Below are positions 1 through 26,551 of a stretch of 26,551 nt of DNA, one piece after another. The translations under genes were made by a program, and so were the position numbers. Source of the DNA: a virus (taxonomy: Duplodnaviria; Heunggongvirae; Uroviricota; Caudoviricetes); the IMG/VR virus record IMGVR_UViG_2526164666_000046; one strand, given 5' to 3'. Each line of letters opens with the position of its first letter. Positions within the stretch are counted from its first letter, which is position 1. Under the pieces are notes generated by a model. The model was not told the origin of the DNA. It made no database searches and worked only from the letters and a program-made list of their open reading frames with translations.

Positions 1-90
1 CCCACCGCTGACGTGGTGTATGACACACCCGTTGTGATTTTTCCATCTGGTACATACCCCGTCTCCCGTTATCCGGAAGCTGACAACAAT

Positions 91-119
91 AAAAAAGCCA
101 CCAGTTAACTACTGATGGC
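91..119 (-). terminator. Putative rho-independent terminator downstream of the small late-region genes
   Basis: Minus-strand hairpin GCCATCAG-(7 nt)-CTGGTGGC (one wobble pair) at plus 97-119, followed immediately by U6 (plus A-run 91-96); lies 13 nt past the stop of the 132..404 gene. Confidence 0.4.
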
Positions 120-131
120 CCTGACTCCCCG

Positions 132-404
132 TTACAGCATCATGACCGATTCGGGTTGAGGTTCAGTCGCATCGGCGACCGGTGATTCAGGCTGAACTTC
201 ACCGCTCTCTGCGGTGGTATCTCCCGCTTCAGTCGGTGGCTCTGCCTGTACACCAAGCAGCTCATCCAGAATGGCATCAACCTCTGCATCAAGACGCGCT
301 TCCAGGTTATGGCGAAGTTTTTGTTCAGTTGCGCTCCGGACTTCTTCAGAGCGCAGGACTTCCTTCACTGCTTCAGCAGTGACCAGGGATGTAATTTCTG
401 ACAT
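132..404 (-). CDS. Small acidic hypothetical protein (90 aa, MSEITSLVTAEAVKEVLRSEEV...), lambdoid late-region accessory protein
   Basis: ATG at 404-402 inside the 132..578 track ORF; the upstream 58 codons of the track ORF overlap the neighbouring gene and look non-coding. Acidic Pro/Glu-rich C-terminus. No family assigned. Confidence 0.5.
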   Translation of the reverse strand: MSEITSLVTAEAVKEVLRSEEVRSATEQKLRHNLEARLDAEVDAILDELLGVQAEPPTEAGDTTAESGEVQPESPVADATEPQPESVMML

Positions 405-444
405 GGGATTTTCTCGTCGAAAGATGTGATTAAGAAAGTTGCCG

Positions 445-624
445 CTAAATGAGCGGCTCTTCGGGTTTGCTTCCGGCTGACTGACTGGCGCTGATTTTCT
501 CAGCGGCCCTTTTTGCAATCTGTCTGCGCCAGACGTCACGCATGGCCCGGTATCCACCCGAGAGGAGATACAGCACACAGACCACCGTACAGAAGTACAG
601 CATTAACTGGTTCAGAAATGTCAT
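445..624 (-). CDS. Small single-pass membrane protein (59 aa, MTFLNQLMLYFCTVVCVLYLLSGG...)
   Basis: Below the 60-aa cutoff of the ORF track; ATG at 624-622 with GGAAAG 8 nt upstream, stop TAG at 447-445; one hydrophobic helix followed by a basic tail. Function unknown. Confidence 0.4.
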   Translation of the reverse strand: MTFLNQLMLYFCTVVCVLYLLSGGYRAMRDVWRRQIAKRAAEKISASQSAGSKPEEPLI

Positions 625-722
625 AATTTCTTTCCGTTATTGTTGACAATAAGAACTGTTTTCATTAAAAAACCAGAGTACGAAAGTATCGTTCCTTTAT
701 TTTTTCTCCATAGGTATCACCA

Positions 723-758
723 CCGCCAGCGTCCATTCCTGTCGCTGGCGGTTTTTTT
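723..758 (+). terminator. Strong plus-strand intrinsic terminator (9-bp GC stem + T7) in a minus-strand intergenic gap
   Basis: CCGCCAGCG (723-731) / loop 732-742 / CGCTGGCGG (743-751) followed by TTTTTTT (752-758). Not usable as a minus-strand terminator (no U-tract on that side). Confidence 0.5.
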
Positions 759-759
759 A

Positions 760-1446
760 TCATGCCGCAGTGTCTGTGCTGTTCACTTCCACCGCAATGC
801 TGTCTATCAGTACCGGGTAAGTCGCACCTCTGGTAATGTCTGTCACATGCAGTTTATCCGCCGCAAAGGCACTGACCGGTGACTGCGTCAGCGTGAACGG
901 TGTGCCAACCTGACCATCAATAACCGGCGTCACCTGAAGGCTGTTATTCCCGGCAAAGCGGAAAGCCAGCGTATGCCATTCGTTATCAAATGCGCCAAAG
1001 GTTCCCAGTTTCAGGTTGTTTGTCGCCACTTTCGCATTGTGGTACATCACATTCAGGTCTTTTGCATCTGTCTGGATGTAGAACGCTGCCAGCAGGTTAT
1101 TCCCCCCGTCTCCGGTCAGGGCAACGCCCTGTGGCAGTGAAGATACCGGCCAGTAAAACGCCATAACATACTGGTTCGCAGCCAGCGCTCCCGAAACCTT
1201 AAAGCGGCAGCGAATCTGCCCCCCTTTCTGTAACAGAGCCGCACCGTTGCCCGCGGCGTACTCCAGCACCCAGCTGCTTTTACCGGCTTCCTTGGTCAGC
1301 TTCACTGCCTTACCTCCGGTTCCCTCCGCATCGCTGACCACTTCTGCCCTGCCGCCACTGGCTGACCATCCCTGTACTTTCAGGCTTCCCTCTGACTCGC
1401 TGGCAAGGTAAGAGAGCAGTGCTCGCGACGCCTGTGGCTTCTGCAC
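760..1446 (-). CDS. C-terminal domain ORF (228 aa), probably the displaced 3' portion of the upstream esterase gene; possible carbohydrate-binding domain
   Basis: Open frame with no ATG (the track 'M' is GTG; first internal Met near residue 94); overlaps the esterase frame by 67 nt; Gly/Ala/Thr-rich beta-type composition. The two-piece layout fits a frameshifted long esterase gene. Confidence 0.45.
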   Translation of the reverse strand: MQKPQASRALLSYLASESEGSLKVQGWSASGGRAEVVSDAEGTGGKAVKLTKEAGKSSWVLEYAAGNGAALLQKGGQIRCRFKVSGALAANQYVMAFYWPVSSLPQGVALTGDGGNNLLAAFYIQTDAKDLNVMYHNAKVATNNLKLGTFGAFDNEWHTLAFRFAGNNSLQVTPVIDGQVGTPFTLTQSPVSAFAADKLHVTDITRGATYPVLIDSIAVEVNSTDTAA

Positions 1447-2699
1447 CGGAAGGCGATGACGGGCGCACCTCTGATACTGTCGATGATGCCCCCGCGTTTA
1501 GCGCCACTCTTCCCGCATGGCGCAAAATCGCCGTTGCCAGGACGGCCGGAAATAATCCCGCGGCGAGCCCATGAACTGAAATGGCTCGCCCTGTCCTGTG
1601 ACGTCCAGGTGGCTGAGCTGTCACGCCATTTCGAACCGTAATATCCGATACCCGGAATGTCCGGGTCTTCTTCCGGTTTGTTCGTCGGCACATTCACCCC
1701 GTTCTCATCCGTCATGAACGGTACGAAATGGATATTCTTTTCCGTTTTGTTTTTGTAGCTGCCGTACACCGTCTGGTACGAGGATTCGTTCTTCTGCTTC
1801 CAGAAATACGTCGTATCTCCACATATCCAGGGAACACCGCCAGCAGAGCCACCGACGCACTGACCTGCCATATCCGCCAGGTCTGCACGGAATTTATCAA
1901 CCAGCGCACCAAACTGTGCTGCGTGATTTACCGGCGTACCGCCAAAATCAAATTCCCCCTGCATCCACACCACGGCAAACAGCACATTTTTCGGGTTCTT
2001 CTTCAGTGCTGCTTTTGTTCGACCGATAAGGTCCTTATACAGCGGCTTGTCCACACCCCAGCGGGTTGAATTCTCCGAGGCACCACTCGCGTCACTGTAT
2101 GTGCCATCGGCTCCGGTGGTGAACGCTGAACCACCACGACAGCACGGAACCAGCAGAATGCCCGCATTCGCCGGTATAAACGGCAGCAATTTTTTGGCGA
2201 TATGCAGCCCTTGCCCCACGGTTCCGTACTGCCCCTTTGACAGGTCCGCTTTCGGATGGTTAAGGCGGCTCATGTCCTGCACATCATGCAGACAATGGTC
2301 CGCCGGAATGATGTCGTTATATTTGCATGCTGCACCGCCCGGTGTCACCGTACTGCGGCGCGCCAGCTGCTTAATACGCGGGTCCGGACGGTCATATGTC
2401 TCCGGCAGCGGAAGGCCTTCACCATATGCCATGCTGTTTGACTGCCCCGCCAGAACCACAACAAAGTAATACTCCGTGTCTCTGGTGGCGCTGATTACTG
2501 TGCCTTCTCCATCCGACGGCTTCACCAACACAGGTGTGGTGACATCACCTTCCGCCGCAATGGCCTGCATCAGAGTATAAGGCGTGATGGCCACCGGACT
2601 ACCAAACGGCTGCCAGCCCTCTTTCAGTTTGTGTGTCAGCTTTTCCGCAAGGTCTGACGGCGACGCCGCCCTGACAACATCATAATGTTTAATCGACAT
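1380..2699 (-). CDS. DUF1737 + SGNH-type esterase, NanS-p-like sialate O-acetylesterase (prophage late-region accessory gene)
   Basis: ATG at 2699-2697 (MSIKHYDVVRAASPSDLAEKLTHKLKEGWQPFGSPV, DUF1737-like N-terminus) with GGGAG 8 nt upstream; esterase block VVVLAGQSNSMAYG (GQSN catalytic-Ser motif). The last ~80 codons (R/C-rich) look out of frame. Family assignment from memory of prophage NanS-p proteins. Confidence 0.65.
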   Translation of the reverse strand: MSIKHYDVVRAASPSDLAEKLTHKLKEGWQPFGSPVAITPYTLMQAIAAEGDVTTPVLVKPSDGEGTVISATRDTEYYFVVVLAGQSNSMAYGEGLPLPETYDRPDPRIKQLARRSTVTPGGAACKYNDIIPADHCLHDVQDMSRLNHPKADLSKGQYGTVGQGLHIAKKLLPFIPANAGILLVPCCRGGSAFTTGADGTYSDASGASENSTRWGVDKPLYKDLIGRTKAALKKNPKNVLFAVVWMQGEFDFGGTPVNHAAQFGALVDKFRADLADMAGQCVGGSAGGVPWICGDTTYFWKQKNESSYQTVYGSYKNKTEKNIHFVPFMTDENGVNVPTNKPEEDPDIPGIGYYGSKWRDSSATWTSQDRASHFSSWARRGIISGRPGNGDFAPCGKSGAKRGGIIDSIRGAPVIAFRCRSHRRREHCSLTLPASQREA

Positions 2700-2925
2700 C
2701 GAATTTCTCCCGTGTACAGGAACAGAGTTAAAAAGCGGAACCGGAATCAAATTACAGGATGGCCATCTGCCAGTGGCTGGTCGTAAAAAAAAGGCCAACG
2801 CCATGCGCAGCCGGAAATAAAGGGATAACGATGATAGTTTGAGAAAAACAGAAACAACACTTTTGTGGCAAAGCATGGTGCCGGGTGCCTCCCGGTGAAT
2901 TCAGTATCAGCACCTGAATCCGCGA

Positions 2926-3577
2926 TTATCCCATATACCTGGTTGCTGATCGCCCCTCCGCACAGGGGGATTCACCATGCAGTAGTATTTTTAATAAACA
3001 GTAAACAAAAAAATCAAGCATTATGCAGGCTGTTTCTTTTATCACCGGCCACAGCAATACCACAATGCCGCAGACCAGCACCCCATCCGCCAGCACCGAC
3101 ATGATTCTGCTGGTGAAATCCACCATCACCACCAGAAACAGCAGGAGTGCAGCCACAGCCAGGCGCAGTTTTACCGCACAGGTGATTCTCCAGACGAAGA
3201 CCCAGAACACCGGCAATCTCTTCCAGCACCTTGCGCTCTTCCGGCTCAATTTCGCCGTCTGCCTCCGCAATGGCCACCGCCACATCCAGCACATCTTCCG
3301 CTTCACGCGTATCGTGTTTCACATCCTCGATCTCACGTAACGCCGCACGACGTACCATTTAAGTTCGTATCCAGCTGACCGATAATGGTTGCGCTAATCG
3401 CATTAATTTCTGACGTAAACGCGGACAGCGCAGGCTGATTACGCAGTACCTGTTCGATCTTCGCTTTCTAGGAAGCCTCACATTCACCATCTGCACAGGC
3501 CACCAGGTAGGCAGCATTAATAACCGCCTGTGCCAGATCGCGTTTCTCAAACTTTCCTTTTTCCGGTTAACATGACA
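2926..3577 (-). pseudogene. Decayed TerB-domain (tellurite-resistance TerB-like) gene followed by a hydrophobic segment
   Basis: TerB-like sequence is split over three frames: ...KGKFEKRDLAQAVINAAYLVACADGECEAS, in-frame TAG (plus 3468-3470), KAKIEQVLRNQPALSAFTSEINAISATIIGQLDTN, frameshift near 3340-3358, VRRAALREIEDVKHDTREAEDVLDVAVAIAEADGEIEPEERKVLEEIAGVLGLRLEN, then another shift into a transmembrane-like stretch (2926..3306 ORF). No intact start codon. Confidence 0.5.
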
Positions 3578-3689: not shown

Positions 3690-3814
3690 CGGGTTTAAGT
3701 TGTGTGGCGAAGTAACCACTCTTAACACGATATAATACTTTTTGCGTACGCGTTAGGATTTTTATAAACTATGCGTCCCCATTCTCGCTATCTTTAGTCG
3801 GTCCTGGAATACAC

Positions 3815-4261
3815 ATGAAAGTTAGAAGCATAGGATTTACAATAAATAACAATAACAAAAATATTAATACCGTTGACGTAATGAATGCTTTTATCAACGC
3901 ATCAAACAGAGAACACAGTCGCACAGACTATACTCGTAAAATTCTCATTTCGGATGTGAATGATTTCTATTATGGATTAGTTGTCACATTCAGAAACCAA
4001 AAAAAGAACTGTAAGTCGCAATTTGTTGATGGTAAATTCCAGCTTAAAATTGAAGATCTTCAAGGAAGTGACAAACTTGCTAATTTCAACTTTTTCTTAA
4101 TTAAAAAATCTAATCTTTCTGGTCTCTATATGTATCACCACGGTTCATGCAGTCTGAACACTCTCTTTTCTCATTTAGAAACAATAAGTAATGAATTTAT
4201 CAGAAATCAAAATAAAGAAGAAATAAAAAACTTGGTGATAAACCAAAACAAAAAGAAGTAA
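3815..4261 (+). CDS. Hypothetical protein (148 aa), first gene of the AT-rich Q-proximal cargo cassette
   Basis: Very AT-rich ORF with Asn/Lys-rich composition; TATAAT-like box about 80 nt upstream. Its frame and the next ORF's frame are both open across an A6 run (4225-4230), so this may be the N-terminal part of a ~270-aa protein. Confidence 0.45.
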   Translation: MKVRSIGFTINNNNKNINTVDVMNAFINASNREHSRTDYTRKILISDVNDFYYGLVVTFRNQKKNCKSQFVDGKFQLKIEDLQGSDKLANFNFFLIKKSNLSGLYMYHHGSCSLNTLFSHLETISNEFIRNQNKEEIKNLVINQNKKK

Positions 4262-4305
4262 CTGCAATAAATAAAAAATACAAAGAAAGACTGACTTTCA
4301 GCCTT

Positions 4306-4629
4306 ATGACAAATAAAAACAACATTCAGAGTGTTTTATGTCAATTCAAAGAGATTAAAAGCACAAGCTTTAAATTTAATTATATAGATTTTAAAGGTGG
4401 ACCAATGACTGCGCTTGAACAATTTGTTAACACCACCACAATAGATATGAATTTTAATTCTAGCGACAGAACAAAAGTGCAACAACTATCTCAGAATCTT
4501 TCAAATATTTATAATTCTATGAGTGGAGTTGCTAAAGCACAGGTTATTGCAGTAAACCATGCAGGAATAGAAAAAACCATTGATTTTATGAACTGCCCTG
4601 TTTTTTTGAAACATACGATTTCGATATAA
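4306..4629 (+). CDS. Hypothetical protein (107 aa), possibly the C-terminal part of the preceding gene
   Basis: Weak RBS; its frame is open upstream to 4216 and overlaps the end of the 3815..4261 frame. Same composition as its neighbours. Confidence 0.4.
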   Translation: MTNKNNIQSVLCQFKEIKSTSFKFNYIDFKGGPMTALEQFVNTTTIDMNFNSSDRTKVQQLSQNLSNIYNSMSGVAKAQVIAVNHAGIEKTIDFMNCPVFLKHTISI

Positions 4630-4725
4630 TTGCCGATAAAGTCAATGGATTGACAAACGATAATTATACAACAAACCCTGTTTTTGATATGATAAAAGAA
4701 GAAATGCTGAACGGGACGAATAAAA

Positions 4726-5274
4726 ATGCCTTTATATGAATGGCTAATAAATAAAAGATTGAGGTATCAGTACCTTACACTGCTTGCATTCTCGATCCTG
4801 GCATTGCTTGCACTTTACCTATTGTACAGAAACACACCTAAAGTAAGTGTTAACTTTTTTGAGTTTTATCATAAAAACTTACGAGGCTATCTCTTCTCCG
4901 GTTTTATTTCCGTGGGCTCATTTTTATTGAGCCTGCATACCTTTGTCATAATAAATTTACGCGATAAGGTTTTTGCAACTCAGGAATATAAGGAAATTTA
5001 TAGCATTGCCACTGGTATACCTATTGACAAAATCAATGATAGTGTACTTTATAAACCTTTAGACAATTTATCCTCATTTATTAATACATCAATATTATGT
5101 TCTATCACAACAGCAATTGCACAATTCACTATTGGACTTTCAACTAATTTATATGCATGCTTATTTTGCGTATGGCTTGCAATACTAACGGTATTTCTTT
5201 TATTACATTGCCTCATCATAATCAGACAAAATATTAAAATTTTATTAAAGCAACAGAGAAAAAAAGGGGGGTAA
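4726..5274 (+). CDS. Four-helix integral membrane protein (182 aa), last gene of the cargo cassette
   Basis: Four hydrophobic segments (YQYLTLLAFSILALLALYLLY; LFSGFISVGSFLLSLHTFVII; ILCSITTAIAQFTIGL; LYACLFCVWLAILTVFLLLHCLIII) and a basic C-tail; stop lies in the loop of the hairpin at 5266-5281. Confidence 0.55.
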   Translation: MPLYEWLINKRLRYQYLTLLAFSILALLALYLLYRNTPKVSVNFFEFYHKNLRGYLFSGFISVGSFLLSLHTFVIINLRDKVFATQEYKEIYSIATGIPIDKINDSVLYKPLDNLSSFINTSILCSITTAIAQFTIGLSTNLYACLFCVWLAILTVFLLLHCLIIIRQNIKILLKQQRKKGG

Positions 5275-5288
5275 TTCCCCCTAATATT
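5262..5288. terminator. Bidirectional hairpin terminator between the convergent membrane-protein gene and Q
   Basis: GGGGGG (5266-5271) / TAATT / CCCCC (5277-5281), flanked by an A-run on the plus side (5259-5265), which gives U7 on the minus strand directly after Q. Confidence 0.5.
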
Positions 5289-5628
5289 ACAACATTGAAA
5301 GCACACCATCCAGAAAACCAAGAGCTGTTTGCAACTCTTTTCTTATTGTCCCATCAGAACACTTCTGCTTCTTTGCAATAGTTCTTAGTGAGATGCCGAT
5401 AACAAAATGAGCAATAACCAACTCATACTCTTCGGGCTTATATTTCCGCAATCGCGCAACACAGCTGTCAATCATGATTCCTTCATCATCATCGCATTGT
5501 TGGCGTGTTTTCTTTCCATGAGGTAGTAAACCTTTAAACCCTGCAGCAACAGGCTGCCAGTCCACACCACTGTTATCTGCTGCAGCCCATGCACCCCAGC
5601 GGTCCAATACTTCATACATATCACGCAT
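5287..5628 (-). CDS. Late-gene antiterminator Q (Phage_antitermQ family, QuuD-like)
   Basis: MRDMYEVLDRWGAWAA...VDWQPVAAGFKGLLP...QQCDDDEGIMIDSCVARL...IAHFVIGISLRTIAKKQKCSDGTIRKELQTALGFLDGVLSML closely parallels the remembered E. coli QuuD sequence. Start taken at the ATG at 5628; the track ORF offers 5643 as an alternative. Confidence 0.8.
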   Translation of the reverse strand: MRDMYEVLDRWGAWAAADNSGVDWQPVAAGFKGLLPHGKKTRQQCDDDEGIMIDSCVARLRKYKPEEYELVIAHFVIGISLRTIAKKQKCSDGTIRKELQTALGFLDGVLSML

Positions 5629-6642: not shown

Positions 6643-7440
6643 TCAATGAACGGTATCGAGCAGCTTTAACAGCTCAGGGAACCGGGATTCGAAGAAATGC
6701 GGCTGCGTCTCGCGCGGATTTGCGGGACTGGTGATGTTCTTGCCGAACATGCAGCCTTTCGCCGTCAGCGACCAGAATTTTTTGATGTTGTTAATCGCAG
6801 TGCGGCTGTATCGTTCACGTTGTTCAACGATCCCCAGCTTCGCCATCTGGTGATATGCCTGATTAGCTGTCAGGCGGATACCATACTGCTTCAGCAGTGC
6901 ACTCAGTGACAGCGTGGGGCGGCTTGAGCCATCAGGCGCGTCAGCAGGAGCATCAATGGCATAGCGCGGTGCCAGATTCGGTAAGCCAACAGCCTCCTGG
7001 AGTTTCTGACAGGCTCCAAGCACTGATGAGTTAGACAGGTTTAATTCCCGGCGCATAAAGTCCAGCAGGATCACACCAGCCTGCATCTTGTCAGCAGCCT
7101 GTCCGGATAATTTTTCCGGTGCGCTGGTTACCATGTCGAAAGTACGGATCACCTTCAGATGGAATGACGGGCTGATCCACATTGCATAGGCATACACCAG
7201 TTCTTTGCAGACATACGTCCCCTGGCTATTTCCGCCACGAATAACGTTAACTGGCTCTATATTGACCGAGTTGCAAATCTGCAACTCGCTTATTAAACGT
7301 TCAGTTTGCTCATTGCGGAGCCAGAATGCAGGCTTATGCTTATCCAGAGAACCGGCAGCCCTGTGCAAATCGTTCAGGCTGTAACGACCATAAGCATCAC
7401 GACGAACTTCAATACCATCAATGACCATCAGATTATTCAT
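6643..7440 (-). CDS. KilA-N domain phage protein
   Basis: MNNLMVIDGIEVRRDAYGRYSLNDLHRAAGSLDKHKPAFWLRNEQTERLISEL fits the KilA-N N-terminal pattern as I remember it; ATG at 7440 with GAGGAG-type RBS. Confidence 0.55.
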   Translation of the reverse strand: MNNLMVIDGIEVRRDAYGRYSLNDLHRAAGSLDKHKPAFWLRNEQTERLISELQICNSVNIEPVNVIRGGNSQGTYVCKELVYAYAMWISPSFHLKVIRTFDMVTSAPEKLSGQAADKMQAGVILLDFMRRELNLSNSSVLGACQKLQEAVGLPNLAPRYAIDAPADAPDGSSRPTLSLSALLKQYGIRLTANQAYHQMAKLGIVEQRERYSRTAINNIKKFWSLTAKGCMFGKNITSPANPRETQPHFFESRFPELLKLLDTVH

Positions 7441-21339: not shown

Positions 21340-22560
21340 ATGGCAAAAATCGCTAAGAAGCTCACTGACACTGAAATCAAAAGCACCAAGCCAGCCGATA
21401 AAGAAATCAACTTGTTTGACGGTGATGGTCTGATTCTACGAATCGCTCCTTTGGCGAAAGGAGGCAAGAAAAATTGGTATTTCAGGTATGCAGTACCCGT
21501 GAGCAAGAAAAGAACCAAAATGAGCCTTGGGACATATCCTCACCTTACCCTTGCAAGAGCCAGAGCCTTACGTGATGAATATCTCTCCTTTCTGGCAAAT
21601 GGTGTTGATCCCCAAATCCATAACAACGATAAGGCGAAGGCATTAAAGAGTGCTACTGAGCACACTCTCCAAGCCGTAGCGCGGAAATGGTTAGATGAGA
21701 AGGTAAAGACATCAGGTATCTCACAAGACCATGCAGCAGACATCTGGCGCAGCTTAGAGAGAAATGTCTTTCCCGGTCTGGGTAATGTCCCTATCCGACC
21801 TAAGCTCTTAAAACAACACCTTGATCCTATTGAGCAACGAGGCGTATTGGAAACTCTACGCCGTATCATTTCACGTCTGAATGAAATCTTCCGGTGGGCA
21901 GCTACTGAAGAACTTATTGAGTTCAACCCGGCTGACAACCTTGGTCAAAGATTCAGTAAACCAAAAAAGCAAAATATGCCTGCCCTTCCCCCAAGCGAAT
22001 TGCCAAGGTTTATGGAATCTTTGACGAATGCGTCAATCCGGTTGGAAACACGTATGCTAATTGAATGGCAATTGTTGACATGGGTTCGTCCGGGTGAAGC
22101 CGTTCGCGCAAGGTGGTCTGATATTGATACAACCAACAGCATTTGGAACATTCCTGCTGATTTCATGAAAATGAAAAAGCTTCACAAAGTTCCTTTGAGT
22201 AAAGAAGCTTTGCGCATCCTTGAATTAATGAAATCAATAAGTGGGCATAGAGAATGGGTTTTCCCCAGCATAAAAGCGCCTCTTAATCATATGCATGAAC
22301 AAACAGCCAACGCAGCTATCATCCGAATGGGGTTCGGAGGCGAGCTTGTAGCTCACGGTATGCGTTCTATTGCACGAACAGCGGCAGAGGAGTCTGGTAA
22401 ATTCAGAGCTGAAGTTCTTGAGGCAGCGCTTGCCCACTCGAAAAAAGATGAAATTATCGCAGCATACAATCGTGCAGAATATCTGATAGAGCGACAGAGT
22501 TTGATGCAATGGTGGAGTGATTACGTTCAAGCTCAAAGATCAAATGCTCTGGTAGCCTAA
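21340..22560 (+). CDS. P4-type tyrosine integrase (IntA/CP4-57-like)
   Basis: MAKIAKKLTDTEIKSTKPADKEINLFDGDGL... closely parallels the remembered IntA N-terminus; C-terminal HGMRSIARTAA...ALAHSKKDEIIAAYNRAEYL catalytic region; RBS GAGGG 8 nt upstream of the ATG at 21340. Confidence 0.85.
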   Translation: MAKIAKKLTDTEIKSTKPADKEINLFDGDGLILRIAPLAKGGKKNWYFRYAVPVSKKRTKMSLGTYPHLTLARARALRDEYLSFLANGVDPQIHNNDKAKALKSATEHTLQAVARKWLDEKVKTSGISQDHAADIWRSLERNVFPGLGNVPIRPKLLKQHLDPIEQRGVLETLRRIISRLNEIFRWAATEELIEFNPADNLGQRFSKPKKQNMPALPPSELPRFMESLTNASIRLETRMLIEWQLLTWVRPGEAVRARWSDIDTTNSIWNIPADFMKMKKLHKVPLSKEALRILELMKSISGHREWVFPSIKAPLNHMHEQTANAAIIRMGFGGELVAHGMRSIARTAAEESGKFRAEVLEAALAHSKKDEIIAAYNRAEYLIERQSLMQWWSDYVQAQRSNALVA

Positions 22561-23233
22561 GTATCAGAATAGCTAATATAATCCTGAAGGTAAAGAAAAT
22601 GGAAACCCTATTCAAAGTTTTTGAAAAATTTAGTTCCAGACCACTTTTTTTATTTTTTTCGGACTCTCACTTTGTGAATTTTTTCAGAAACAATCTGTTC
22701 TGATGAATCCATCAGCAGATAACATCGCGAAATTATTCGCAGCCATGATATTAGTTGTTTTTTTACTTGGGGATTTGAATGGCTAATCTTCAAGTTCAAT
22801 GTAAACCTTGAACCTCATGATCAAGGCGATATTGGACCAACAATTGGAACGGCTACTTTAGCTGTATACTTAGTTTATGCCTTTCACTTTCTCAGTGAAA
22901 ATCCTGAAGCATTAAATTTAAAGTTATTAACTAACTCTGGCTTTATATACAGCACAACTCTATTATTATTCTCATTAGAATGCATGAAGCTTAGAAGACT
23001 TAAACAAAAATAAACAACATCATTGTGATGATAAATATAAAATAGGCATGGCGAAAAAAAATCACCACGCCTAAAATATAATAATTATGGTAGCATCATT
23101 GATACATAATCCACACCAATCCTTGAGCTATACTGAGACGCTATAGCCTGATATCTTTCTGCATAACCAGTTCTCAGTTGAGATTTAAGTTTGAGTCGGA
23201 CAGGAACATTTTGCACGTTGCCATCCATATTAC

Positions 23234-24832
23234 TTAAAAACACGGCAGAAATAATATTTTTTCTTCGCCATCAACTGTTGTTCCATGATTCAACACCACC
23301 ATATAATCAACAACAGGAAGCGTTTTATCCCCTTCGAAAATAGAGAGATATTTTCTTTGATTTTTATGCATTACATATATATATTTCGAATGTTCAGCAA
23401 ATGGCAATGCTTTACTCTGACTGGCGTTAAAAAGCTCCAGAACTTTAATGAGCCTGTGCGGACTTAATCTTACATGGTGAGGGTCGTTACCCTGAGTAGG
23501 AACCAAATCACATGCCGCAGATACACATAAATACCATTTGTTCGACTCTGTATCAAAGAAAATAGTGCCAGTAGAAATATGACCATCTTCAAAATTCTTT
23601 GAAGACAAATTCATATTTAAAGCATGATACATTTCGTGATAAGTATCATTATTTGATGGCAGATCCATTTTTGAAGAGCAATATTGGAGCAATGCAGCAA
23701 CTCCGCTGTTAGCGTATTCATTTGAATAGCTATCAAAAACACTTTTGATAAATTCATCCAGCGTATTATTATTTTTAAGTCTTTGATAAAGCTCTTCTGA
23801 TAAATTACCAAATACAAAGTCAATATTTCTACATCTAATATCAGGCGAGTCTGATTTTAATATCTCATTTAACCACGCAGCTTGACCGTAATGATCGTTA
23901 GCCAAATGATTTACAAAAGATAAAGCCTCAGCTTCGATTGCATTCTGAATTTCAGATTTTATTAACTGATAATAAGATGGTTTCCATTCAATGAGAGAAT
24001 CATTGAGAGTTTGCCAAATCCTATCTCCATCGTTTTCATGATCATCTTGAACCTTATGAAATAGGGAGACAAAGATATTACCACATTGAATCCATTTTAC
24101 TCCGCTTTCATCACCCCGAATGACATTGCCAGATGTGTTGCTAGAAATAATTGCATTTCTAGACACAGCATATTCTGCAATCATTTTTGCAATGAAGTTT
24201 TTATCCTTTTGATCCTCCAACACAGCATCATCATGTATTAATCTTTTAATTCTTCTACAAGGCTTACTGTCTTTAATATAGGCTATTATTTCATCTCTTG
24301 TGAGAGCTTTATTACCATTATCATTTAAGTTCGGTAATACAACGTCTTCCCAATAACTTTGGACATCTTCATTATCGTAGTCAATGATCAAGCTGTTGAT
24401 ATCCAGAGCACCTTTGAGAGTCGATGATATCTGCATCCAAACCGTTTCTAAATTCTCTCTAGTATATATTACAATCATATTTAAATGATCGGAGTCTTTC
24501 AAATCTTGTAATAGTTTAAGTGTTTTATCAGGTGCATTATTATCAAGATGATAATCTACAATAATAAGATCTGATTTTCTAATCCGATCCACATCGAAAT
24601 TAACAGAACCATTGTCAACATCACAAATCATATTTTTAGATTGAAAAAAGCTCTCAAGAGTAGCGGCTCGTTTAGATGAGTCAATTTTGTTGTAGTCTAA
24701 ATCAACTTCGTTATTCAACGCCCTGATTGATTCAGAATACGTCAGAAAATCGTCATCAATCATGACAACGGAACGAATTGCATTTTCGCAGAAAGTTTTC
24801 TGGACAAGAGAATTATAATTTGCCACTGTCAT
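23234..24832 (-). CDS. Receiver (REC)-domain protein fused to a ~400-aa uncharacterised C-terminal domain (532 aa); candidate effector of a two-component-type module
   Basis: N-terminal REC-like pattern: SVVMIDDD (acidic pocket), DLIIVDYHL (phospho-acceptor Asp position), NMIVIYT (conserved Thr position). ATG at 24832 with GGAG 7 nt upstream, 1 nt after the kinase stop. Very AT-rich. C-terminal domain unrecognised. Confidence 0.6.
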   Translation of the reverse strand: MTVANYNSLVQKTFCENAIRSVVMIDDDFLTYSESIRALNNEVDLDYNKIDSSKRAATLESFFQSKNMICDVDNGSVNFDVDRIRKSDLIIVDYHLDNNAPDKTLKLLQDLKDSDHLNMIVIYTRENLETVWMQISSTLKGALDINSLIIDYDNEDVQSYWEDVVLPNLNDNGNKALTRDEIIAYIKDSKPCRRIKRLIHDDAVLEDQKDKNFIAKMIAEYAVSRNAIISSNTSGNVIRGDESGVKWIQCGNIFVSLFHKVQDDHENDGDRIWQTLNDSLIEWKPSYYQLIKSEIQNAIEAEALSFVNHLANDHYGQAAWLNEILKSDSPDIRCRNIDFVFGNLSEELYQRLKNNNTLDEFIKSVFDSYSNEYANSGVAALLQYCSSKMDLPSNNDTYHEMYHALNMNLSSKNFEDGHISTGTIFFDTESNKWYLCVSAACDLVPTQGNDPHHVRLSPHRLIKVLELFNASQSKALPFAEHSKYIYVMHKNQRKYLSIFEGDKTLPVVDYMVVLNHGTTVDGEEKILFLPCF

Positions 24833-24833
24833 A

Positions 24834-26551
24834 TTAGAACTCCACTCCATTGAACTGGATCACAAAATTAGCGCCATCTTTTATTAAATAGTTATCGCCT
24901 TCATCAGGTTCTGAATACCATATTTTATGATGTGCAACAGCAAGGTTTTCTCGACATAGATACAGACCTACCCCATGTCCATTTGCTCTTTTGCTATAAA
25001 ATAGTTCAAATAGTCGCGGGATATCATCGGTATCAATTGCCGGACCAGAATTTGCTATGATAACCAAAGAATTCACAAAACCAATCTTTATGAGCCTATT
25101 ATTTGACAGACTGACCCAATACATTGCATTGTTGATAATATTAGTAAAAACAGGATAGATCCTTAATGGTATATCTGTTATTGCGATTTGCTTAAACTCT
25201 TCACTAAATTCAATAGTTATTCGTTGCCGTTCGAAACGCTCCCCAAAGAACTTCAGGACATAATCCATGATATTTTTTCCAGTTATTCTCTGCCTGGATT
25301 GATAACCTGATATTTTCAAAGGTGATAAGAAACGTATTTGTTGAGTAAGCGATCTGTGAGCATTTAACGCCAATGAAAAACCAGGGTGTTCTTTTACAGA
25401 AGTAGGAAGAGAGTTTAGTCCTCTGGTTACCATAGAATCCATTTCTTCAAGTTCATGAGATATTATCTCAACACTAATACCTAACTGTGCAAGCGCGTTT
25501 AAACTTTTAGCTTTTTCTTCAAAATATGAGCGTTCTTCTTCAGATAATGAGAATGCTGAATCTAAGTTTATACCTTCAAATAATCTATCGAGACCTTTTA
25601 TTATTGATTGATATTTGAAAGTTAGGGTATCAACTGACTCAACATATAAACTATCGAGCAAATTAAACACATTTTCAATTTGTGAATCATTATCTATTGA
25701 ATCAACAACTGATATAGTTTTAGCATAATAATCACTTCGATCAACCTTTATTTCATCGGCCCATTTTTTTAAAAGAGAATGTATCTTCTCCTCTATCGTG
25801 TTATTAAACTTAGTTAGTTTAGAATTAATAATACCTTGATTTTTTCAAGGTGATTTTTCGCTGACAATGAAGGCTCAAGTTTATTTAATTCAGAATCAAG
25901 TTTATTAATTGCTAACTTCATTTGTAGAATATACGCAGAGAACTCATTAAATTTATCTCTGTAGTCTCTATATTTCTCTTCATACATTCCAAGTTTTGGA
26001 GGTTTGATAGGCGTTTTAATTTCACTGCGCAACGCATCTAAGTTTGTAAGATCACTGTCTATAATTTTAAGATAGTTTAAATCTAACGAACCATCAGTTT
26101 TATCAAGCTTAGTTTTCAGCCTTTTAACAGCCTCCAAGGAAGCATCAAGAACTGGTGTCTGATTCTTCAAAGCTTCTGAAAAACTTTTTTGTGTTGATTT
26201 TCGAGCTTGTTGTTGAGCAGATTTTCTTAACTCTTTTTCACGCTTAACTTGTTCTAAAAGCTCTTTACGGTCATCAGAACGTGAACCAAAAAATCTATCA
26301 GCAAGTTCAGTTAACAAATTAGATATAATAGTTTTCAGTTCTCTTGCAGCCTGGTTTCTTATGAATCCCTCTCTCCCCGACTTATCTTTCAGCTCTTTAT
26401 TACTGGATTGAGTAATTCCAATATAACCAAAAATCCTTCTATTAGACCAATAATATCGCCCTGCATTCCATGAACGTCTTTCTTCTATCTGGAAGAAATC
26501 ATTATCTACTCGACCATAAGGTAATACTCTCAAGCTATCCCTAAAAATCAT
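24834..26551 (-). CDS. Sensor histidine kinase (HisKA H-box + HATPase_c), 5'-partial at the window edge, reading frame interrupted at an A6 run
   Basis: Downstream part (frame open 25844..24834, no start codon) carries H-box IISHELEEM, N-box FTNIINNAMYW, G1 IANSGPAIDTDD, G2 GHGVGLYL. Upstream part (26551..25814, continues beyond window) ends 30 nt after the frame switch. One extra A in the minus-strand A6 run (plus 25840-25845) would fuse both into one ORF of at least 580 aa. Confidence 0.6.

Follow-up and report, generated by a model that had tools for sequence, protein, structure and literature searches.

Two frameshifts at the domain junction of a prophage nanS-p gene from Escherichia coli DEC10B are probably errors of the draft assembly

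INTRODUCTION

The NanS-p proteins encoded by prophages in Escherichia coli strains that make Shiga toxin (STEC) strip 9-O-acetyl groups from sialic acids; they are induced along with the late genes, and lysogens grow on mucin-derived Neu5,9Ac2 (PMC8065619, PMC10462455). Esterase activity is known for the alleles of EDL933 and O104:H4 (PMC8065619). The described members, including L0105/z1466 of 933W, YjhS of BP-4795 and vb_24B_21/gp84 of phi24B, share a single three-domain order (DUF1737, then SASA with its GQSN and RASH blocks, then the lectin-like DUF6645) and a common late-region site that precedes the genes for DUF1378, DUF826 and holin. In gp84 of phi24B the DUF1737 domain is reported to bind the capsid, which the protein decorates, and cleavage to take place in the interdomain linkers, with an SSP motif discussed as the processing site (bioRxiv 10.64898/2026.04.10.717836). 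The NanS protein of E. coli K-12 (YjhS; structure 3PT5) is homologous to the catalytic domain of the protein examined here (aa 74-393 of its intact form) and has neither the DUF1737 nor the C-terminal lectin domain. Here we describe a nanS-p gene at positions 760-2699, minus strand, of a stretch of 26,551 nucleotides from a virus of the Caudoviricetes (IMG/VR record IMGVR_UViG_2526164666_000046; hereafter, the window). Annotated STEC copies match the gene at 97-99.8% DNA identity, but here two interruptions of the reading frame flank the linker that joins the catalytic domain to the C-terminal lectin domain. Both frameshifts, we propose, probably stem from errors in base calling or in the consensus of the E. 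coli DEC10B draft assembly and not from mutation of the organism.

RESULTS AND DISCUSSION

A standard NanS-p gene with two breaks flanking its interdomain linker

By its domain content, the segment 760-2699 is a standard prophage sialate 9-O-acetylesterase gene of the NanS-p type, already a well-known gene. An earlier note, made from the letters of the window, had recognized a NanS-p-like esterase with a DUF1737-like start and a GQSN catalytic block within exactly these limits, and the gene is bounded as it proposed, by an ATG at 2699-2697 and a last stop at 762-760. The features of the locus, in the order in which the gene is read, are as follows.

760-2699, minus strand: whole nanS-p locus, 1940 bp long as against 1938 bp (645 aa) for the intact gene of relatives
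2707-2712, minus strand: Shine-Dalgarno-like GGGAGA, read from the sequence, 7 nt upstream of the start codon at 2699
2550-2690, minus strand: N-terminal DUF1737 domain (PF08410; aa 4-50; E=2.2e-15, Pfam search of the 439-aa open reading frame)
1542-2480, minus strand: NanS-homologous SGNH/SASA catalytic domain, aa 74-386, in the frame of the start codon
2436-2447, minus strand: SGNH block I, GQSN, aa 85-88 (block definition, PMC10462455)
1581-1592, minus strand: SGNH block IV, RASH, aa 370-373, upstream of the first frameshift (block definition, PMC10462455)
1540-1546, minus strand: break 1; on the plus strand, an additional G at 1540/1541 (G to GG) and T to C at 1546
1380-1541, minus strand: out-of-frame tail of the 439-aa open reading frame, 53 codons (PGNGDF...SQREA) and the stop at 1382-1380
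1425-1539, minus strand: interdomain linker LATAILRHAGRVALNAGASSTVSEVRPSSPSGAEATGV, 38 residues, readable in the second frame only (frame 1)
1424-1426, minus strand: break 2; on the plus strand, an additional C at 1424 (CTG to CTCG) and T to C at 1426
760-1423, minus strand: C-terminal lectin-like jelly-roll domain, read in the third frame and closed by the stop at 762-760

All three domains characteristic of the family are present. On the 439-aa open reading frame (ORF), which runs from the ATG at 2699 to the stop at 1382-1380, Pfam also places SASA (PF03629) at aa 80-276 (E=1.3e-11; positions 1872-2462), and the intact relative aligns over aa 74-393 with the structure of E. coli NanS, 3PT5 (E=8e-116). 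The remainder lies in a second ORF (760-1446, 228 aa) that contains DUF6645 (PF20350; E=4.6e-74, Pfam; positions 877-1233), and over aa 423-640 the intact relative matches the crystallized C-terminal domain of NanS-p, 6YP6 (E=5.6e-139), the equivalent of which in the window is 778-1422. As the earlier note had observed, this downstream ORF has no ATG and overlaps the upstream one; its sole start is a GTG, and the overlap measures 67 nt. No Shine-Dalgarno sequence was found before the GTG at 1446, and in the recorded gene call of the source contig the C-terminal part is predicted only as a 134-aa remnant. NanS-p proteins are otherwise single ORFs of about 636-657 aa, whereas in the window the first stop falls at codon 440 of 645; in its deposited form the gene is a pseudogene.

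Base-level alignment to the nearest genomes reveals exactly four differences within the coding sequence (CDS): two insertions and two substitutions. In the close relatives, which are 99.8% identical in DNA, the same segment is a single uninterrupted CDS of 1938 bp and 645 aa (e.g., WP_032212763.1 and YjhS of BP-4795). This settles in favor of an interruption the question that the earlier note had raised, namely, whether intact homologues might also end at the equivalent of 1380 and be followed by an independent gene with its own start: they do neither, and that arrangement is ruled out. Read in the sense of the gene, break 1 turns TCC GAC CGT CTG into TCC GGC CGT CCT G, resulting in D385G and a frameshift at codon 387, and break 2 turns GTC ACA GCA into GTC GCG AGC A, which substitutes T425A and shifts the frame again at codon 425. 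Translated in its three frames, the segment reveals a true reading path that passes from frame 0 (aa 1-386, 2699-1542) through the linker in frame 1 to the C-terminal domain in frame 2 (1423-763). Once bases 1540 and 1424 are taken out, the ORF again spans 645 aa, and D385G and T425A are the sole differences from WP_032212763.1.

The two insertions thus bracket the linker, and the earlier proposal of a break where the catalytic domain meets the C-terminal one is correct. Break 1 removes the last ~7 residues of the NanS-homologous domain, every SGNH block lying upstream of it, and break 2 falls at the first residues of the lectin domain as crystallized in 6YP6; the SSP motif lies within the linker between them. 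The upstream product would resemble K-12 NanS with an added DUF1737 domain, but with its last ~7 catalytic residues replaced by 53 out-of-frame ones. An out-of-frame end of the esterase ORF had been suspected, and it exists, but its length had been put at about 80 codons in place of 53. A peptide that had been singled out as more natural-looking in another frame within 1500-1620, VTGQGEPFQFMGSPRDYFRPSW (VTGQGEPF...), is not the true frame at 1535-1620. The intact relatives there read TSQDRASHFSSWARRGIIS, in the 439-aa ORF's own frame, and the true shift comes at 1540. The earlier statement that the breaks lie outside homopolymers holds: neither insertion sits in a long one.

The sequence at the breaks has two further peculiarities. 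Each compound change gives rise to a perfect 6-bp GC palindrome (CGGCCG and TCGCGA, respectively), and in the gene sense the two substitutions are alike, A to G; these shared properties are probably a coincidence. Directly 3' of the nanS-p stop, at 739-758, there is a terminator-like hairpin and, after it, a T-run, in plus-strand orientation, i.e., opposite to the gene.

The variants are private to one draft contig

The 439-aa product is exactly EHW66053.1 of E. coli DEC10B, which is recorded on one contig only. The window corresponds to bases 2 onward of that draft contig, AIGQ01000065.1, with no mismatches over the 12,699 bases compared. DEC10B is an O26:H11 human isolate carrying stx1, from Australia in 1986 (PMC2211750).

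We searched 5,426 complete E. coli genomes with 41-nt probes around each site. The break 1 alleles were absent from all 2,242 homologous places in these genomes and the break 2 alleles from all 1,550, with a best match of 39 of 41 positions at both sites, which means that no copy holds even one of the four differences. All 30 of the top complete genomes listed have the 2060-bp, intact form. In IMG/VR there was no exact match to either variant, and the site 1 context carries the reference allele in all of the at least 120 viral contigs among the matches listed; the inserted-base patterns likewise had no match in metagenome contigs or species-representative genomes. The four alleles are private to a single draft contig. 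Mixing with a paralogue, or gene conversion, was considered as a source of the four bases and rejected: since none of the 2,242 and 1,550 places carries any of them, they were not borrowed from another copy. Diversity-generating or adenine-specific mutagenesis was set aside, as its supporting context is absent and such a process would not be expected to insert bases.

Interrupted nanS-p copies do occur elsewhere. Alleles interrupted by insertion sequences (IS), such as the CTR3 alleles with IS629/IS1203, are common in O157 Stx2a phages (PMC10462455). A different nanS-p paralogue in the O121 genome RM8352 (NZ_CP028110.1, L006:1868-3813) is annotated as "frameshifted"; in its C-terminal domain a G6 run has become G5. 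Further complete genomes of the O121 type, several in number, bear the label "DUF6645 domain-containing protein" at the matching place, which suggests that this pseudogene is common to them. The C-terminal domain is lost or altered in both groups, as in the window, but they are common to several independent complete genomes, whereas the window's breaks are found on one draft contig.

The contig carries an error signature along its length

To place the nanS-p changes among the other differences in the window, we used the nearest complete genome, NZ_CP027577, over 26.5 kb. The two differ by 7 substitutions and 20 single-base indels, and the first 4.6 kb hold 20 of these 27 differences. No more than three of the substitutions stand alone, which puts the true divergence at about 1e-4. 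Real bacterial indel-to-SNP (single-nucleotide polymorphism) ratios are well below 1, so that at this divergence about one real indel or none would be expected. Eight of the indels lie in A/T runs of at least 6, and every one of them is a one-base undercount, the frequency of which grows with the length of the run (1 of 37 6-mers, 4 of 19 7-mers and 3 of 6 8-mers). This is the signature of flow-based sequencing, the presumed platform. Of 37 CDSs that are intact in the relative, the window has 6 with frameshifts, five of them besides nanS-p; 28 of the remaining 31 are 100% identical in protein.

The remaining indels have a distribution of their own, which defines one more feature.

1-3360, no strand: terminal stretch of the draft contig, holding all indels outside runs of at least 6 and all compound differences

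Compound clusters that resemble those in nanS-p occur at 325/329, 514/515, 2735, 2797, 3176 and 3353-3360, the last with five indels packed into 8 bp, and all are at most 3.4 kb from the contig end. Because the window begins at contig base 2, nanS-p itself lies 0.8-2.7 kb from that end. Its segment is multicopy, with 9-13 matching places per close genome, whereas the cassette at 3700-5300 is single copy per genome. The locus thus shows what is expected of a draft artefact: an indel-to-substitution ratio well in excess of natural values, run-length undercounts, and a private variant near a contig end and in repeated DNA.

Error, decay or a split gene

On the basis of these observations, we consider it likely that the nanS-p frameshifts arose in base calling or consensus building. 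Under this scenario, the consensus of a multicopy stretch near a contig end would have taken up many run-length miscalls of the flow-based type, and the two nanS-p indels would belong to the same population of errors, an assignment that we infer from their company on the contig. The profile is like that of 454- or Ion Torrent-type drafts in being rich in indels, in its A/T undercounts that grow with run length, and in its clustering near a contig end in repeats. Several points weigh against this explanation. The insertions (G to GG and CTG to CTCG) lie outside long homopolymers, and each is paired with an adjacent transition, unlike the textbook error of flow sequencing; in 454 or Ion Torrent terms they would be 1-to-2 and 0-to-1 overcalls with adjacent apparent substitutions and not undercounts of long runs. 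The T7 variant of the window near 4600 is also present in two complete genomes, so that this indel may be real and some of the window's indels may be no artefacts. Genuine frameshifted nanS-p paralogues exist in complete O121 genomes, and the high redundancy of nanS-p per genome makes real decay of a single copy biologically plausible. Finally, it is from sequence comparison that we infer the status of the changes as errors, which is a step short of showing it. The earlier note had drawn the opposite conclusion, taking the lack of homopolymers at the breaks to suggest real decay and not read error. That step is not supported, in view of the 20:7 excess of indels, the run-length undercounts and the other frameshifted CDSs, as well as of the restriction of the other non-homopolymer compound miscalls to the vicinity of the contig end and the absence of the four differences from all other sequences scanned.

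A recent, strain-private pseudogene, in which one nanS-p copy of DEC10B acquired two compound mutations, each a transition with a 1-bp insertion, is in our view unlikely. Its product would be a 439-aa protein with DUF1737, the catalytic domain and 53 junk residues, the C-terminal domain being untranslated. The breaks are, after all, present in the deposited sequence and outside long homopolymers; with 9-13 nanS-p places per related genome, selection on single copies would be weak; and both frameshifted (O121, G6 to G5) and IS-disrupted copies (PMC10462455) are documented. Yet it requires that a gene otherwise identical to its relatives over 1.9 kb should have gained four private changes in the space of 123 bp, in a window with about 3 isolated SNPs in 26.5 kb, while 18 further indels on the same contig bear a technical signature and the allele is found in no other genome, phage or metagenome contig scanned. 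Far less probable still, to the point of being very nearly negligible, is a gene that is recoded or functionally split, either by a double ribosomal frameshift or as separate ORFs that mimic a natural proteolytic separation of the domains. It draws some appeal from the reported cleavage of native gp84/NanS-p in the interdomain linker (bioRxiv 10.64898/2026.04.10.717836) and from the position of all SGNH blocks ahead of break 1, by virtue of which the upstream ORF could remain catalytic. However, the ribosome would have to shift by +1 twice in succession, neither break offers a slippery or long homopolymeric site, and the arrangement is conserved in none of more than 2,000 homologous places; programmed frameshifting and transcriptional slippage were rejected on these grounds. 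The downstream ORF, with its GTG start, its lack of a Shine-Dalgarno sequence and its gene call of a 134-aa remnant, also speaks against independent translation. Error in the draft assembly remains the explanation that we favor.

Prophage context and neighboring genes

Megablast places the window in a lambdoid prophage that is common to O103, O26, O111 and O121 STEC genomes, at 99.9% identity. The prophage is lambdoid and non-Stx, and nanS-p lies in its late operon, with the antiterminator Q on one side and the lysis genes on the other. Read along the minus strand, the early genes are followed by Q (5287-5628), a cassette on the opposite strand, a TerB-family pseudogene, DUF3927, nanS-p, DUF1378 (445-624) and DUF826 (132-404), the late-region position typical of NanS-p. 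In relatives, the holin, lysozyme and lysis genes come directly past the left end of the window. BP-4795 and like Stx phages have stx between Q and the same esterase gene; the prophage in the window has no stx and instead carries the unannotated AT-rich cassette, the TerB pseudogene and DUF3927 between Q and nanS-p. No tRNA genes were found in the window.

The AT-rich cassette consists of two plus-strand genes (3815-5274) and thus occupies the site of stx in Stx phages. In intact relatives its genes encode proteins of 308 and 182 aa (L004:5818-6744 and 6731-7279). It is single copy per genome and present in 527 of the 5,426 E. coli genomes, and 3815-5274 had no match in Pfam or PADLOC; it may be an uncharacterized moron or defense cargo. 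The gene for the 308-aa protein is split in the window by an A7-to-A6 change at 4224 and a T8-to-T7 change at 4600. As the T7 allele also occurs in NZ_CP074756, where a 271-aa protein is annotated, and in NZ_CP074819, the T-run near 4600 may be genuinely polymorphic.

Further disruptions are seen on either side of the cassette. The TerB-family gene (~3180-3540, minus strand) is annotated as a pseudogene with an internal stop even in complete relatives, and the window adds the indels at 3353-3360; the DUF3927 gene (3014-3179) is frameshifted in the window. A second integrase lies at 21340-22560, and beyond it, in 22599-26551, undercounts of T7 or T8 runs frameshift each of three genes, whose products are a hypothetical protein of 138 aa, a Response_reg_2 (PF19192) protein and a HEF_HK/HATPase_c protein. 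All three genes are intact in relatives, and the three proteins had no match in PADLOC.

Implications

The main lesson for genome analysis is that, when a gene looks like a pseudogene in an old draft contig, the indel-to-substitution profile of the whole contig and the distance to its ends should be weighed, and that the lack of a homopolymer at a break does not prove real decay. With regard to the prophage itself, the finding is ordinary, whether it proves to be an error or a real pseudogene. Its biological weight is low: NanS-p is well studied and present in many copies, and the 9-13 matching places per related genome imply that one broken copy, even if real, would have a small phenotypic effect.

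If the breaks were real, the upstream ORF would lose the terminal end of the catalytic domain, the linker and the lectin domain, the last of which would no longer be made as one translated unit. It is quite doubtful that the insertions are genuine and that DEC10B has a natural NanS-p variant in which the reading frame of the linker is lost. Were this so, the strain would make a protein of capsid-binding DUF1737 and catalytic domain with all of its SGNH blocks but with neither the lectin domain nor the native processing site, and nature would thereby have set up a test of how far esterase function or capsid decoration depends on the C-terminal carbohydrate-binding domain and on cleavage in the linker.

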